Of a DNA stretch of 64,000 nucleotides, positions 59,236 through 64,000 are shown piece by piece (position 1 is the first letter of the stretch; the number at the start of each line of letters is the position of its first letter). The notes under the pieces were generated by a model that saw nothing but the letters and a program-made list of their open reading frames with translations, did not search any database and was not told the DNA's origin. The translations under genes and the position numbers were made by a program. This DNA comes from an uncultured Chloroflexia bacterium (GTDB lineage: Bacteria; Chloroflexota; Limnocylindria; Limnocylindrales; CSP1-4): contig CAVVJT010000002.1 of assembly GCA_963748625.1 (NCBI GenBank), positions 160,001-224,000 of the forward strand, in the 5' to 3' direction.

Positions 59236-59845
59236 TCAGCCGGCGACACCGGGCCCTGGGGCGCGATGGAAGCGGATGCCATCGCGCAGGTCCTCGCACC
59301 GGGTGGTCGAGGGCTCCCGGAGCGTGCGCAGAATGGCGAACCCGTCGCCCACACAGCCACCGAGGTGGATGGCCAGCGGCACGACCAGGTAGCCGGCCCA
59401 CGGCCCGAAGCACAGGGCGAACCCGATCGCCGAGATCACGACAGCCGGGGCGGCGGCGACCATCAGGTACCCCGGTCGCGTGAACCGGTGGCCGTCGGCC
59501 GTCGTGTAGAGCGCCGGGACCACGCGGCCGACGAGCATTGCGCCGAACCGCGGCCGCGCGCCGAGACCACGCATCACCAAGCCATGGATCCCTTCGTGGA
59601 CGACCATCAGCAGCACCGTGGTGCCCAGCACCAGGAGGACGTCGGCCAGGTCGAACTGGATCTCTCCGGAGGCCGACCCGGACTGGAGGATCGCCGGCTG
59701 GGCGAAGAGCACGAGGCCGACGACCGTGACCACGACGGCTGTGATGTTCCAGGTGATCGCCGACGAGGTGCCCGGCCGCCACTCCACGACGTCGGGTTCC
59801 GGCTCGCGTCCGCGGTGCCTGGACGGTGTCGAGTTCCTGTGTCAT
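59236..59845 (-). CDS. DUF3267-like membrane metalloprotease (5' frameshift)
   Basis: 'VHEGIHG', 'AAAP', 'GCVGD'. Confidence 0.8.
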
Positions 59846-59873
59846 GGGCGCATGGTGGATCCGGTGATCCGCC

Positions 59874-59893
59874 ATGTCATGACCACTGGTCAT
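59874..59893 (-). promoter_or_regulatory. ATGAC-N5-GTCATGACA motif, copy 1
   Basis: Minus ATGACCAGTGGTCATGACAT; 17 bp then CACCAT, then 6 nt to ATG 59845. Confidence 0.7.
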
Positions 59894-59994
59894 CCAGCCT
59901 GGCGATCGCGACTGGACGCAGGGAGGACAATAGGCGCATCCACCCCGACGTGTTCCCCGGCGGCCGCGTCACCACCGACCCCGGAGGCATCCCG

Positions 59995-60204
59995 ATGACC
60001 GACACCACACAGGCTCCCGCCCCGGCCCAGCCGGCCCTGACCAGCGAGGAGCGCCTGCGAGCGATCGCCGGCGATCACAAGCGCAAGGCCAAGCGCGCGC
60101 CATCGCCCGCCCCCGTGGTCGACGGGTCCCGCCAGCCCGGTGATCTGATCGACCCGGTTCGGGATCGCTCCGGCCGCGACCTCGGGCGCGACCAGCCGCT
60201 CTGA
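59995..60204 (+). CDS. Small hypothetical protein (69 aa)
   Basis: RBS GGAGG; 'MTDTTQAPAP..DQPL'. Confidence 0.6.
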   Translation: MTDTTQAPAPAQPALTSEERLRAIAGDHKRKAKRAPSPAPVVDGSRQPGDLIDPVRDRSGRDLGRDQPL

Positions 60205-60261
60205 CGCCGGCGCCGGCCCGCCGGCGGGCAGCCCTGGCCGGCTGGAACGACGCGGGCGGCG

Positions 60262-60303
60262 ATGACGGCCCGTCATGACACGCGCTCGCCTGGTCGCCAT
60301 AGT
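60262..60303 (+). promoter_or_regulatory. ATGAC-N5-GTCATGACA motif, copy 2
   Basis: ATGACGGCCCGTCATGACA-17bp-CATAGT. Confidence 0.7.
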
Positions 60304-60366
60304 CCGGGTTGCATCTCTCGCAGGCCATGCGAGCCCGAGGACAGCATCAACACGAGGAGCGGCGAC

Positions 60367-60597
60367 ATGACCACCGATGGCGAACCCCGCGGCGACTTCG
60401 CGGAGGGTCAGGCCGACATCGAGGAGCCGGCCGGCGCCCTCGAGGGCGACTTCGCGGCAGGCGAGGAGGAGACGCCGCGGACTGGCACCGTCCAGCCGAG
60501 CGGCGGCTTCGCTTCCGGCGAGGCAGCGGATCCGACGGATCCGACGGCGCTCCACGGTGACTTCGCGCGCGGCCAGGAAGAGGAGCCCCGCAAGTAG
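60367..60597 (+). CDS. Small acidic repeat protein (4x G[D/G]FAxG[Q/E])
   Basis: RBS GAGGAG; GDFAEGQ, GDFAAGE, GGFASGE, GDFARGQ. Confidence 0.75.
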   Translation: MTTDGEPRGDFAEGQADIEEPAGALEGDFAAGEEETPRTGTVQPSGGFASGEAADPTDPTALHGDFARGQEEEPRK

Positions 60598-60687
60598 TCT
60601 GGGTCGCCTGGGGCCGACATCCGCGTGGCCCGCAGCTCACGGAGGCCCGGCTGTCAGCGACCGGTCCTCCGCTTCTGCATCCCCCGA

Positions 60688-61470
60688 TCAGGCCTGCGGC
60701 CGGTGGCCCACGTCCCCCTCGCCCGCCCATCCCGTGTTCGAGAAGGTGGGGATGAACCGGTAGCCACGACCTGACACGGTCGCGATGAAGCGCGGATGCC
60801 GGTAGTCGTTCTGGAGCTTGACCCGCAGGCTGCGGATGTGCCGGTCCACGATGTTGCTCTCCGACACGAAGTCCGTGCCCCAGATCGCGTCGAGGATCTC
60901 GTCGCGCGTCACGACCTGGCCGCCACGGCTGGCGAGCAGGTAGAGCAGGCTCTGCTCGATCCCGGAGAGGTGGATCACCGACGTCCCGGTGCGCACCTCG
61001 CGGCTCAGGATGTCGATCTCCATCTCGCCGATCGTGATCGTGGGGATGAACGGCTGCTCGATCCCCGTTGCGCGGCGGGTGAGGACGATGGCCCGCGCGA
61101 GCAGCTCCTCGGGGGCGAACGGCATCGTGAGGATGTCGTCGACGCCCAGGTCGAACGCCCGCAACTTCGTCCTGAGGTCGCCCCGGCGGGTCAGCCCCAG
61201 GGCCGGCGTCACCTGCTTGGTCAACTGGCCTGTCGACCCGAGGTGCCCGAGCAGCGCCGTGCTGTCGTCGTGGTCCATGTCGATGACGGCCAGGTGCGGC
61301 TGCCAGCTGGCAAGGATCGCCTGTGCCCCGGCGAGGGTGTCCGCGGCCCGCACCGCGAAGACCCCGTGGTTGAGCGTCAGCTCGATCAGGTCCACCACGA
61401 GCGGGCGGTCGTGCAGCACGAGCGCACGGCGCGCGTCGCCTGTGAGCGGCTCCGTGGGCTCGACTGTCAT
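60688..61470 (-). CDS. Orphan OmpR-family response regulator with atypical receiver
   Basis: wHTH 'RDEILDAIWG..SNIVDRHIRSLRVKL..TVSGRGYRF'; receiver 'VLHD', 'VIDMD', 'LTMPF'; start uncertain. Confidence 0.88.
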   Translation of the reverse strand: MTVEPTEPLTGDARRALVLHDRPLVVDLIELTLNHGVFAVRAADTLAGAQAILASWQPHLAVIDMDHDDSTALLGHLGSTGQLTKQVTPALGLTRRGDLRTKLRAFDLGVDDILTMPFAPEELLARAIVLTRRATGIEQPFIPTITIGEMEIDILSREVRTGTSVIHLSGIEQSLLYLLASRGGQVVTRDEILDAIWGTDFVSESNIVDRHIRSLRVKLQNDYRHPRFIATVSGRGYRFIPTFSNTGWAGEGDVGHRPQA

Positions 61471-61696
61471 ACGCATCTGTGAACTGCACCCTGGCGGTGG
61501 TCCCACGCGGGCCCGGTCTCGGGCGACCACGCTGATTCTACCGCGCGGGTGGTCACTTCCGCGTCGGACGGCTGCCTGAACGATCGGCGAGGCCCGACCC
61601 GATCAAGGAGTCGAGGACATGTCCTCAGCCTCCTCGTCACGGGACGGCCCCCGCGGGGCAGTCCTGGCCGGCCGGCCGCGAAGGTTGCGTGCCGTG

Positions 61697-61738
61697 ATGA
61701 CGCCTCGTCATGACACGCTCCCGCCTGGCCGCCAGATT
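61697..61738 (+). promoter_or_regulatory. ATGAC-N5-GTCATGACA motif, copy 3
   Basis: ATGACGCCTCGTCATGACA-17bp-CAGATT. Confidence 0.7.
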
Positions 61739-61893
61739 CCGGTTGCATACATCAGGGGGCTCGGCGTCTCGGGACGCGGGCCCTTCCTCCCTCCAGACCT
61801 GCTCCTGGCGTGTCTCCCTCCCTCTGCGCCAGGAGCAGGTCGCTCCGTTTCCGGCGCATCGACCACCATGGGCGAGGCGCGGAGGTGTCGGAC

Positions 61894-62985
61894 ATGGCGA
61901 ACGACGACAGAGACCAGCCTACGCACAAGCCGGCGCCACCCGCCGGATCCAGTGCCGTGGTCAGGAACGCAATGTCAGACGCTCGGAAGGCCTCGAGCGC
62001 CGATCAGATCATTGCCGATGCCGATCAGTCGGCGTCCGACGCGGACCAGGTGTCCTCCGAGTCCGATCGGACGTCATCGGATCGGGACCAGACCGGCGCG
62101 GACCGGGATCAGCTGGCCTCGGACCGGGACCAGGCGACGGCGGACGCGGATCGAGCGAAGCGTCTCGACCTGTCCCCCGCTGAAGTGGACGCCTACGAGA
62201 CATCTCGGGAGCATCGGATGGATGCGTCGTTCGAGCGTCTCGGCAATCGGATTCGCCGACAGATGACCGCGCGCGACCGGGATGAGGCGGCGACGGACCG
62301 GGATCGGATGGCAGAGATCCGTGACGAGGGAGGCCGGGGGAGGGACGCCCACGCGACCGACCTCGGACTTCCGTCCAACGAACGTGAGGCGGACCTGCTG
62401 CACGAGCTCGAGAAGCTGCGTGCCGAGGCTGCGGCAGACCGCTCGCGAGCGGCGGAGGATCGCACGCAGGCCGCCACCGACCGGGCCAAGGCCGCCCGTG
62501 ATCGGGCCCGGCTCGAGGGGGAGCTGCAGGCCTCCCACCTCGACGAGCTCACCGGCGCCTACCGGCGCGACATGGGTCGCCTGGCAATCACCCACGAGAT
62601 CGACCGCGTGCGACGATCGGGCGGACCGCTCGTGGTGGCCTTCGTCGATGTCGACGAGCTCAAGACGGTGAACGATCGGGAGGGCCATGTCGCGGGGGAT
62701 CGCGTGCTGCAATCCGTGGTGCGAGCGATGCGGTCACGGCTGCGCTCGTTCGACCCGATCATCCGCTACGGGGGCGACCAGTTCGTGTGCGGACTGGCCG
62801 GCACGGACCTTGCCGAGGCGAGACGCCGGTTCGACCTGATCGGCATTGCGATCGAAGCGAATTCCGGGGTCGGGATCAGCGTCGGGCTCGCGGAGCTCGA
62901 GCCGGAGGACACCGCAGACGGGCTGACCGGACGCGCCGATGCGGCCATGCTCGATGTCAAGGCAGCGCACCACACCCGGCTCTAG
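61894..62985 (+). CDS. GGDEF-domain protein with heptad-repeat coiled coil (GGDQF variant)
   Basis: RBS GGAGG; 'DELTG', 'DVDELKTVNDREGHVAGD', 'RSFD..RYGGDQF', 'RADAAM'. Confidence 0.9.
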   Translation: MANDDRDQPTHKPAPPAGSSAVVRNAMSDARKASSADQIIADADQSASDADQVSSESDRTSSDRDQTGADRDQLASDRDQATADADRAKRLDLSPAEVDAYETSREHRMDASFERLGNRIRRQMTARDRDEAATDRDRMAEIRDEGGRGRDAHATDLGLPSNEREADLLHELEKLRAEAAADRSRAAEDRTQAATDRAKAARDRARLEGELQASHLDELTGAYRRDMGRLAITHEIDRVRRSGGPLVVAFVDVDELKTVNDREGHVAGDRVLQSVVRAMRSRLRSFDPIIRYGGDQFVCGLAGTDLAEARRRFDLIGIAIEANSGVGISVGLAELEPEDTADGLTGRADAAMLDVKAAHHTRL

Positions 62986-63019
62986 GCGTCCCACCACCAC
63001 GCCCGGCGTCACCGGCCGC

Positions 63020-63039
63020 ATGACACGCCGTCATGACAC
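63020..63039 (+). promoter_or_regulatory. ATGAC-N5-GTCATGACA motif, copy 4
   Basis: ATGACACGCCGTCATGACAC upstream of the YggT-like gene. Confidence 0.7.
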
Positions 63040-63145
63040 CGGGCCGCGGGGGGCGCCTACTACGGGTACAGCATTGGCCGGAGTCTCACCCGGCGGTGGT
63101 CGCCAGGCCCCGCTTCCCCGGATGCCTCGTGCACGGGAGAACACC

Positions 63146-63565
63146 TTGGCCATCGACCAGGTCGACCGGACGGTCGTCACCACCCAGGAGTCCACGCCCA
63201 CGGGCCCGGCGACCGTGCAGACGGACAGCCAACGGACCAGCAGGTCGGGTCCCGGCGGCGCCGAGATGGCCCGCCGCATCGTCGTCCTCGTCTTCGGGCT
63301 CATCCAGATCGTCATCGGGGCGCGCATCGTCCTGCTCCTGCTCGACGCGCGGGAGGCCAACGCCCTCGTGTCCGGGATCCTCAACGTCAGCCAGGTGTTC
63401 GTGGCGCCGTTCGAGGGGATCCTGCGAACGGACTCCCTCAACGCGGCGGGCTCCGTCCTCGACATCACCGCCATCGTGGCCCTCGTCGGCTGGACGATCC
63501 TCGAGCTGATCGTGCTCTGGGTCATTGGGATCTTCTCCCGCCGGTCGGCCGTAGCAACCGCCTGA
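63146..63565 (+). CDS. YggT-family membrane protein
   Basis: 'IGARIVLLLLDA..NALVSGI..SQVFVAPFEGI..LDITAIVALV'; TTG start after GGAG. Confidence 0.8.
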   Translation: MAIDQVDRTVVTTQESTPTGPATVQTDSQRTSRSGPGGAEMARRIVVLVFGLIQIVIGARIVLLLLDAREANALVSGILNVSQVFVAPFEGILRTDSLNAAGSVLDITAIVALVGWTILELIVLWVIGIFSRRSAVATA

Positions 63566-63655
63566 CCGCGTCGCGGTGCCCGCTGCGGACGGGTGATCAT
63601 CCGCCCCTCCACGCGGCCCGTCACGGACGGGCGCGCCACGAAAGGACCACCCCGC

Positions 63656-63922
63656 ATGGGAATCATCGCCTGGATCGTGCTCGGCGCAATCGCCGGGTTC
63701 ATCGCCAACCTCATCATGGGCTCGCGTGACGGCCTGCTCATGATGATCGTCCTGGGCATCGTCGGCGCCGTCGTCGGCGGCTTCATCGCCGGCAACCTGC
63801 TCGGCATCGCCGATGTCACCGGCTTCAACCTCACCAGCCTCCTGGTCGCGGTGTTCGGCGCCGTCGTCGTCATCGCCGTCGCCCGGCTCGTCATGGGCCG
63901 CGGCACGACGCGGACCGTCTGA
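63656..63922 (+). CDS. GlsB/YeaQ/YmgE stress-response membrane protein
   Basis: 'MGIIAWIVLGAIAGFIA..IVLGIVGAVVGG'. Confidence 0.92.
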   Translation: MGIIAWIVLGAIAGFIANLIMGSRDGLLMMIVLGIVGAVVGGFIAGNLLGIADVTGFNLTSLLVAVFGAVVVIAVARLVMGRGTTRTV

Positions 63923-63985
63923 TCAACCGCCGCTCAGTACGTCTTCACATCCACTCCACACGCACCTAGCACGAAGGAGTCAGGC

Positions 63986-64000
63986 ATGACTGACGAGCAT
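63986..64000 (+). CDS. Start of next CDS (MTDEH..., truncated by window)
   Basis: AAGGAG RBS followed by ATG; product not determinable. Confidence 0.45.

Follow-up and report, generated by a model that had tools for sequence, protein, structure and literature searches.

A 19-bp sequence, ATGAC-N5-GTCATGACA, was found in four exact intergenic copies within 3.2 kb of the genome of an uncultured high-G+C soil member of the Chloroflexota (Limnocylindrales/CSP1-4 lineage), each copy being aimed at the next gene, and it is almost certainly a genuine promoter element of a regulon. The copies lie in the window, the term used here for the whole stretch of 64,000 nucleotides that was analysed (C2:160001-224000 of the 4.63-Mb assembly, 71% G+C). 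On balance, the motif is read here, from sequence, as a composite promoter element of a lineage-specific stress-like regulon, which would be bound by a dimer of an orphan regulator that activates weak promoters. The best candidate for this regulator, as judged by co-occurrence and co-location, is an atypical orphan response regulator of the OmpR/PhoB family (260 amino acids) encoded at 60688-61470 on the minus strand. To our knowledge, the CSP1-4/Limnocylindrales lineage has no cultured members. Literature searches, from whose coverage most subscription journals were missing, found no description of the motif under several spellings, the only strings containing GTCATGAC being primers, and no work on gene regulation in Limnocylindrales/CSP1-4 under the names of the lineage.

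The motif had been noticed in a first-pass annotation of the window, which placed four intergenic copies within 3.2 kb, oriented to the downstream genes, and exact copies were indeed found at all four. The three plus-strand starts were right, while copy 1, given as 59893-59874, was off by one base and is actually located at 59875-59893. This copy (ATGACCAGTGGTCATGACA, minus strand), which comprises the palindrome plus the -35, is directed toward a DUF3267 peptidase gene and is followed 17 bp after its ATGACA by a predicted -10, CACCAT (59852-59857, minus strand), with a putative start at ~59844-59846. Copy 2 (ATGACGGCCCGTCATGACA, 60262-60280, plus strand) has the top weight-matrix score of the genome and is directed toward the gene of an acidic repeat protein, with a predicted -10 of CATAGT (60298-60303, plus strand) and a predicted start at ~60309-60311. 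Copy 3 (ATGACGCCTCGTCATGACA, 61697-61715, plus strand) is divergent from the regulator gene and points toward a GGDEF gene; its predicted -10 is CAGATT (61733-61738, plus strand) and its predicted start at ~61744-61746 leaves a leader of ~150 nt. Copy 4 (ATGACACGCCGTCATGACA, 63020-63038, plus strand) faces the YggT-like, GlsB and CsbD genes, and the hexamer found 17 bp on, CCTACT (63056-63061, plus strand), is the weakest -10 match and yet is kept in orthologous YggT promoters; the start predicted for this copy is at ~63068. The spacing of 17 bp between ATGACA and the hexamers CACCAT, CATAGT and CAGATT had also been described in the first-pass annotation, as had the likeness of copies 2 and 3 in spacer and downstream sequence (cgcctgg..gcca.., ggttgcat); both were found as stated. 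When up to 2 mismatches were allowed, the window gave 5 matches, the fifth being copy 3 read in reverse, against 0.27 expected from 100 dinucleotide shuffles, none of which reached 5.

A count over all 4.63 Mb of the genome gave 5 occurrences of the 19-mer, the fifth (C10:263895) lying before a second YggT-GlsB pair. The bare palindrome ATGAC-N5-GTCAT was found at 6 places, with GAC on one side of every one. A sixth genome site (C4:344451), in which the last base is G, precedes the gene of a secreted ice-binding-like protein. A seventh, imperfect site (C10:81246, minus strand; GTCAT changed to TTCAT) was the sole further match above threshold of a weight matrix built from the sites of other genomes only, and stands before a gene for a cupin, which is also a target family in relatives. 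The genome-wide scan that had been called for in the first-pass annotation therefore returned 7 sites only, all of them intergenic. The YggT-like/GlsB pair was recently duplicated along with its promoter, with motif, spacer, leader and coding sequence near identical between C10:263895-265000 (L005) and window 63020-63922; the window copy of the YggT-like gene begins with TTG and the C10 duplicate with ATG.

Conservation was assessed in 60 other genomes of the genus, of which 25 carry an ortholog of the regulator (E <1e-100), 34 lack it and 1 has a gene fragment, and in a class sample of 301 genomes (own family f1, 91; f4, 103; f3, 92; small-genome family f2, 12; f5, 2), the reversed pattern serving as control in all cross-genome counts. 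In the genus, 227 matches at up to 1 mismatch were obtained, with up to 23 per genome, compared with 1 for the reversed pattern. The 18-mer ATGAC-N5-GTCATGAC was exact in 59 of the 301 class genomes (control 0), namely 44/91 in f1, where it is spread over many genera, 12/103 in f4, 2/92 in f3, 0/12 in f2 and 0/2 in f5. The class tallies take in genomes flagged as unpublished (G308 for the motif; G350, G308, G136, G217, G179, G298 and G173 for the regulator) and a variant site at L185 comes from the flagged G350; the main conclusions are independent of these genomes. Only 16 of 104 sites were located inside crudely predicted open reading frames (ORFs), though these ORFs cover 61% of the bases, and at most sites the shared sequence is limited to the 19 bp. 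The motif thus recurs in the promoters of relatives within genus and family with a control near zero, and it avoids coding sequence rather than being equally frequent there; recurrence of the first kind had been proposed as a check in the first-pass annotation, and equal frequency in coding sequence as a reason to abandon the motif. In some promoters, two or three palindromes overlap at intervals of 13 bp (GTCATGAC-N5-GTCATGAC-N5-GTCATGAC), as at G005:C8:126616-126651 (L019) and G067:C241:5376-5407, and one such array precedes a cupin gene.

The geometry of the element was derived from 158 aligned non-redundant sites, in which positions 38, 40 and 42 lie outside every search pattern. At these positions A, A and T were found in 75, 49 and 80% of the sites, respectively, against a background of 14.5%, which reveals a -10, cAnanT, at a distance of exactly 17 bp from ATGACR; the T that normally opens a -10 is lacking. 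Counted from the GAC-less side of the palindrome, the values at positions 38 and 42 fell to 17% and 17%. Because the conserved -10 sits 17 bp after ATGACR, and on the GAC side only, the element is considered a palindrome fused to a -35. Palindrome and -10 keep a rigid phasing at 74% of the sites. The claim of the first-pass annotation that a palindrome overlaps the -35 is borne out, since the terminal hexamer, ATGAC(A/G), shares 2 bp with the operator and holds a fixed distance to an independently conserved -10. Motif position 19 is A or G, so that ATGACR matches TTGACA at 4-5 of 6 positions. Around regulator genes, 104 of 110 bare palindromes are flanked by GAC, 12 of them on both sides; from the sequence, the latter arrangement is predicted to represent back-to-back divergent promoters. 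The spacer is itself symmetric (of the 158 sites, position 6 is G in 135 and position 10 is C in 124; position 7 is G in 94 and position 9 is C in 112), and for this reason the operator is taken to be the 15-bp palindrome ATGACGGnCCGTCAT, with a dimeric protein favoured over a sigma factor as its reader. The 5-bp gap between half-sites is fixed in all sites by the construction of the search. The centre of the operator is 29 bp upstream of the first base of the -10, which would place it near -41 if transcription starts ~7 nt after the -10.

The association between motif and regulator was found to be close. All 25 ortholog-bearing genomes of the genus have sites (median 8), whereas the 34 ortholog-less genomes have a median of 0 (21 with none, 9 with one and 4 with three or four); the genome with the regulator fragment has 5. 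Fisher's test of two or more sites against presence of the ortholog gave p = 4e-10, a value to be read with the relatedness of these genomes, which are not independent, in mind. Within family f1, the exact motif occurs in 34/34 ortholog-bearing genomes against 10/57 of those without ortholog. Presence and absence are patchy and concordant inside at least 10 genera; in genus g5, for instance, the same 3 of 11 genomes carry both. Co-location was examined in 80 ortholog loci (658 kb), which had been fetched with the regulator as bait, and 116 sites were found in 57 of them (control 0). Sites are commonest immediately after the regulator stop, pointing on, and directly upstream of the gene, pointing away, as with window copy 3. 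As regulator-less genomes have essentially no sites, a universal factor is unlikely to be the reader. This regulator family probably reads the motif. The first-pass annotation had left the regulon to either this regulator or an alternative sigma factor; co-occurrence and co-location best support the regulator, and the sigma factor has become the less likely of the two.

The regulator has a receiver domain (Pfam Response_reg, 31.7 bits, cut-off 30.2) and a winged helix (Trans_reg_C, 81.1 bits). Full-length alignments were obtained with RpaA, KdpE and PhoP, RpaA being the best whole-length solved match (E 9.4e-26), while the DNA-binding domain alone best matched PcoR (E 9e-16), then KdpE (1e-14). 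None of the NCBIfam subfamily cut-offs examined was reached (PhoB, 115.7 vs 296.2; TIGR01387, 109.8 vs 279.2; RpaB, 105 vs 330; MtrA, 104.7 vs 300). Thousands of close relatives exist in public metagenomes under generic names only, the closest being on contigs of metagenome-assembled genomes assigned to Candidatus Limnocylindrales, Limnocylindria and Chloroflexota/Chloroflexia, including CSP1-4. These relatives place the window in the Chloroflexota and not among the actinobacteria, to which its base composition might have pointed. Compared with RpaA and KdpE, the receiver has His-Asp for the acidic pair, keeps Asp64 and Thr94, and has Met in place of the conserved Lys. In 82 orthologs the first acidic position is His in 80 and the second is Asp in 74, the acceptor Asp and the Thr are present in all 82, and the conserved Lys is absent from all 82 (M 45, V 32, T 3, L 2), so that the first acidic residue and the Lys both depart from the canonical phospho-pocket. 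The loop VIDMDHDDS (residues 62-70, window 61260-61290; core DMDHDD) and His20 are near invariant in the subfamily, and together they put two His and several Asp at the Mg2+ position of a canonical receiver. No histidine kinase was found within the 59-64 kb region of the window, and none was a recurrent neighbour among the 25 scanned cluster representatives of the 80 ortholog loci; GlsB (25), YggT-like (22) and CsbD (11) proteins were the recurrent neighbours in these loci. The description of the regulator as atypical and kinase-less in the first-pass annotation is consequently upheld, by the replacement of Lys in 82/82 orthologs and by the lack of a kinase in the region and the clusters scanned. 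The His-rich, remodelled pocket and the loss of Lys suggest an input other than a classical kinase. For two copies of the regulator, a predicted homodimer (alignment A2) scored 0.25 against a mark of 0.42, a value that weighs on neither side.

In the proposed mechanism, the first 15 bp, ATGAC(GG)n(CC)GTCAT, would form an operator of two-fold symmetry and the last 6 bp, ATGAC(A/G), would serve as the -35 of a sigma-70-type promoter, with a 2-bp overlap between the two and a weak -10 (cAnanT) exactly 17 bp downstream. The regulator at 60688-61470, and its paralogues in relatives, would bind the palindrome as a head-to-head dimer centred ~41 bp upstream of the start. There the dimer would abut sigma region 4 at the -35 ATGACR and recruit RNA polymerase to otherwise poor promoters, and where GAC is present on both sides one dimer could serve two divergent promoters. 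The altered receiver would not be switched by a classical kinase. Binding by this particular protein, the head-to-head arrangement of the dimer, activation rather than repression and the lack of a classical-kinase switch are all inferred; given binding, activation is reasonably likely. A wider and considerably more tentative possibility is that the general stress response of the Limnocylindria is run by paralogous, kinase-independent OmpR-type regulators with one shared box instead of an alternative sigma factor, that the receiver pocket (His20, DMDHDD and Met/Val for Lys) senses a ligand, a metal ion, pH or redox directly, and that one dimer fires two divergent promoters.

Several observations weigh against this interpretation. 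Sites were found without an intact regulator in G201 (91% complete; 6 sites, no ortholog found), G192 (3 sites, no ortholog found) and G141 (5 sites; all that is left of the regulator is a frameshifted C-terminal remnant). Among the 21 genomes of the sister family f4 with a regulator match, only 7 have the exact motif, and of 8 f4 regulator loci 3 have GTAAT or ATTAC variants and 5 have nothing within 2 mismatches. Families f3 and f5 carry a regulator subfamily of 45-54% identity (65/92 and 2/2 genomes, often multicopy), and the motif is almost absent from both, including f3 where this subfamily is widespread; because ATGAC-N5-GTCATGAC is so scarce there, this subfamily probably reads another box. 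In five regulator-less genomes, the only YggT homologues are distant ones (45-55% identity) that lack a motif nearby, and since the regulator and its targets behave as an accessory cassette, co-occurrence cannot fully part the regulator from its cargo. The regulator gene is itself seldom a target, accounting for 7 of 117 downstream ORFs. With regard to the protein, the invariant acceptor Asp and Thr would allow for a distant kinase, and a repressor could make equal use of an operator in contact with the -35. In two studies, OmpR-family proteins are described as usually binding head-to-tail on direct repeats (PMC8345958, PMC12916501).

The most serious rival is that the regulator is a repressor, its operator over the -35 blocking polymerase at promoters that work unaided until a stress signal releases the protein. 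The 2-bp overlap of operator and -35 and the agreement of ATGACR with TTGACA at 4-5 of 6 positions would suit such a role, and RpaA either activates or represses depending on position (PMC12916501). Two features speak for an activator instead, although neither is decisive: the -10 is poor, with the first T absent and A-11 and T-7 alone conserved, and the rigid phasing of palindrome and -10 (74% of sites) is expected of a protein that contacts polymerase rather than one that merely blocks it. Repression is accordingly regarded as unlikely.

It is also conceivable, though rather doubtful, that a different dimeric factor which travels with the same accessory genes reads the palindrome, the regulator being a mere neighbour or a member of the regulon. 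The sites without an intact regulator in G201, G192 and G141 fit this explanation, as does the cassette-like behaviour of regulator and targets; a missing gene is weak evidence, as metagenome-assembled genomes are incomplete. A palindrome of the 5-N5-5 type is unusual for OmpR-type proteins, and some sites precede regulator paralogues just as they precede ordinary targets. Against it, no other transcription factor was found to be a conserved neighbour in the 80 loci, where Crp-like proteins occur 4 times and extracytoplasmic function (ECF) sigma factors and MerR proteins 3 times each. The Crp-like factor was considered as a rival reader and rejected, being present in 10 of the 60 genus genomes, missing from most of the motif-rich ones, and not found in this genome, G053, G055, G045 or G042. 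A Crp-like helix-turn-helix protein adjoins the regulator in 4 of the 80 loci (for example, L113:2962-3885).

An alternative sigma factor that reads an extended -35, GTCATGAC, together with a CANNNT -10 and needs no activator is very improbable. The invariant GAC and the unusual -10 could in principle define a dedicated specificity, and the stress regulons of other phyla are generally known to be sigma-driven: those of SigB in Firmicutes and of EcfG/PhyR in Alphaproteobacteria depend on alternative sigma factors with their own -35 and -10 sequences. The gene content of these regulons is also similar, as it includes CsbD, GlsB/YmgE-type, glycine-zipper, PRC-barrel and small hydrophilic proteins as well as superoxide dismutase. 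Here, in contrast, the element combines a symmetric palindromic operator with an ordinary layout of -35, 17 bp and -10, and it is this combination that makes a sigma factor the less likely reader. The upstream half-site ATGAC and the symmetric spacer lie outside any -35, and a spacing of 17 bp with an A-11/T-7 pattern is that of primary-type sigma factors. No sigma gene is a conserved neighbour in the 80 loci, and the only one preceded by a site looks primary-type, with region 1.2. Finally, the possibility that the repeats arose by chance, or are what is left of a repeated or mobile element, and play no part in regulation can be practically dismissed, for although copies 2 and 3, and copy 4 and the C10 copy, are related by duplication, shuffles predict 0.27 matches, only 19 bp are common to most sites, and the motif is intergenic, coupled to a -10 and conserved across genera with a control of 0.

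The element and its candidate regulator can be compared with three described OmpR-family systems. HP1043 (HsrA) of Helicobacter pylori is an orphan OmpR/PhoB regulator with a degenerate receiver that works without phosphorylation; it is an activator whose site consists of two hexamers 5 bp apart, readable as an inverted repeat, at -26 to -42, and it has been modelled head-to-head (PMC8345958). The present system resembles it in having an orphan atypical OmpR-type regulator and 5-bp-spaced half-sites that overlap the promoter, but differs in the half-site (TTTAAG there, not ATGAC), in the regulon (essential housekeeping, not stress-type genes) and in keeping the acceptor Asp and Thr, and specific sequence kinship goes no further than the family. 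The heavy-metal response regulators CusR, PcoR and CopR recognise perfectly palindromic sites built from (A)TGAC...GTCA(T) half-sites (AAAATGACAAnnTTGTCATTTT; at pcoE, TGACAAnnTTGTCAT), and several regulators share the one copper box (PMC11195947). The half-sites are similar, PcoR is the best solved match of the DNA-binding domain and TIGR01387 is the second-best NCBIfam match. However, TGAC and GTCA are 6 bp apart in the copper boxes and 5 bp apart in the present motif, and the heavy-metal regulators are paired with cognate kinases and possess canonical receivers. The TIGR01387 score of 109.8 is far below the cut-off of 279.2, so that the regulator is not a member, and no metal genes were seen among the targets. 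The copper box was rejected as the identity of the motif on account of the 5-bp gap and the stress-type targets. RpaA, the output regulator of the cyanobacterial clock, binds just upstream of the -35 and activates via sigma region 4 and the C-terminal domain of the RNA polymerase alpha subunit; its site is an AT-rich tandem repeat, TAAA-N7-TTAA, bound head-to-tail, and phosphorylation by its own kinases is required (PMC12916501). It is the best whole-length solved match and its site likewise abuts the -35, but it possesses a canonical receiver (DD...D...T...K) and needs phosphorylation. With a site of TAAA-N7-TTAA, the RpaA motif was rejected as a known match.

The finding is not surprising in kind, as OmpR-type regulators with palindromic boxes have been described before, and so have orphan regulators of the atypical sort. 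It offers a precise regulatory code, consisting of a 19-bp box, predicted starts and target promoters (seven in this genome, dozens in relatives), and one candidate protein. If the interpretation as a regulator-bound activating element is correct, it would be the first stress-type regulon to be described from this class, would add a further orphan response regulator with a remodelled receiver, and would provide a handle for metatranscriptomes of soil drying and rewetting.

In gene content, the target set resembles that of a general stress response (CsbD, GlsB, glycine zipper, PRC barrel, nickel superoxide dismutase, cupin), as far as can be judged from the sequences. A heuristic based on G+C content at third codon positions identified a downstream ORF for 117 of 166 distinct sites, many being missed in G053 and G055, and the gene tallies are therefore minimum counts; they also lean to regulator neighbourhoods, because the 80 loci were fetched with the regulator as bait. 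Among the 117 ORFs, 33 encode YggT-like proteins, 10 GlsB/Transgly_assoc proteins and 7 regulator paralogues, followed by ice-binding-like proteins (6), cupins (6), GGDEF proteins (6), CsbD (5) and solute-binding proteins (4). Targets in smaller numbers include glycine-zipper, DUF1269, DUF421/YetF, PF04228 zinc peptidase, nickel superoxide dismutase, SHOCT, PRC-barrel and PAS proteins, an AI-2E transporter and a primary-type sigma factor. The sites across G053 and G055 add a major facilitator superfamily transporter and, by reading of the sequence, YceI-like, glyoxalase-like and receiver proteins. The dedicated regulon that had been proposed in the first-pass annotation is supported by these results, through the conserved motif, the fixed 17-bp spacing to the -10 and the recurrent general-stress-like gene set.

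The target genes in the window are as follows. The gene downstream of copy 1 (59236-59787, minus strand) encodes a DUF3267 putative zincin peptidase of 183 amino acids (PF11667, E 1.5e-18). An ORF for a hydrophilic protein of 69 amino acids (59995-60204, plus strand) lies between copies 1 and 2, with no motif toward it and no family match. The target of copy 2 (60367-60597, plus strand) is a small acidic protein of 76 amino acids with four G-[DG]-F-A-x-G-[QE] repeats, for which neither Pfam nor NCBIfam has a matching family; the promoter in front of it is paralogous to that of the GGDEF gene, with which it shares spacer, -10 context and ggttgcat. Copy 3 precedes the gene of a GGDEF-domain protein of 363 amino acids (61894-62985, plus strand) with a long, Asp/Gln-rich, coiled N-terminal part. 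The signature of this protein is GGDQF (window 62775-62790) and that of four orthologous ORFs is GGDEF; this substitution may have left the cyclase inactive, or it may simply reflect variation between strains. Downstream of copy 4 are a YggT-like membrane protein of 139 amino acids with a TTG start (63146-63565, plus strand), which belongs to the commonest target family, a small membrane protein of 88 amino acids identified by domain match as GlsB/YeaQ/YmgE-type (Transgly_assoc; 63656-63922, plus strand), and the start of a CsbD-like gene (67 amino acids; 63986-64000, plus strand), which runs off the window and is probably the third gene of the operon.

Among the RNA data, one metatranscriptome, X1, contained 6% of the sampled words. 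It yielded only short contigs, 90-99% alike, over coding parts of the regulator, GGDEF, YggT-like and GlsB genes; these contigs carry no information on start, strand or level, and as an RNA library X1 may hold DNA. The RNA runs X2-X4 gave no match to the stretch.

Two leaders show possible secondary structure. The YggT leader (window 63068-63150, alignment A1) is strongly conserved and could fold into a hairpin of CCCC-GGATGCC with GGCA-CG-GGAG, which includes Shine-Dalgarno bases; compensatory change was seen in only 2 of 12 pairs and there was no Rfam match. A search of window 59800-64000 against Rfam, with E up to 1, gave only a chance-level snoRNA match (18.8 bits vs a cut-off of 40). The ~150-nt GGDEF leader contains a long GC-rich hairpin, cctgctcctggcg ... 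cgccaggagcagg (window 61798-61839), which may be an attenuator or a protein-binding RNA. This hairpin is kept in L007 and also in L010, where the same leader stands before a YggT-like gene.

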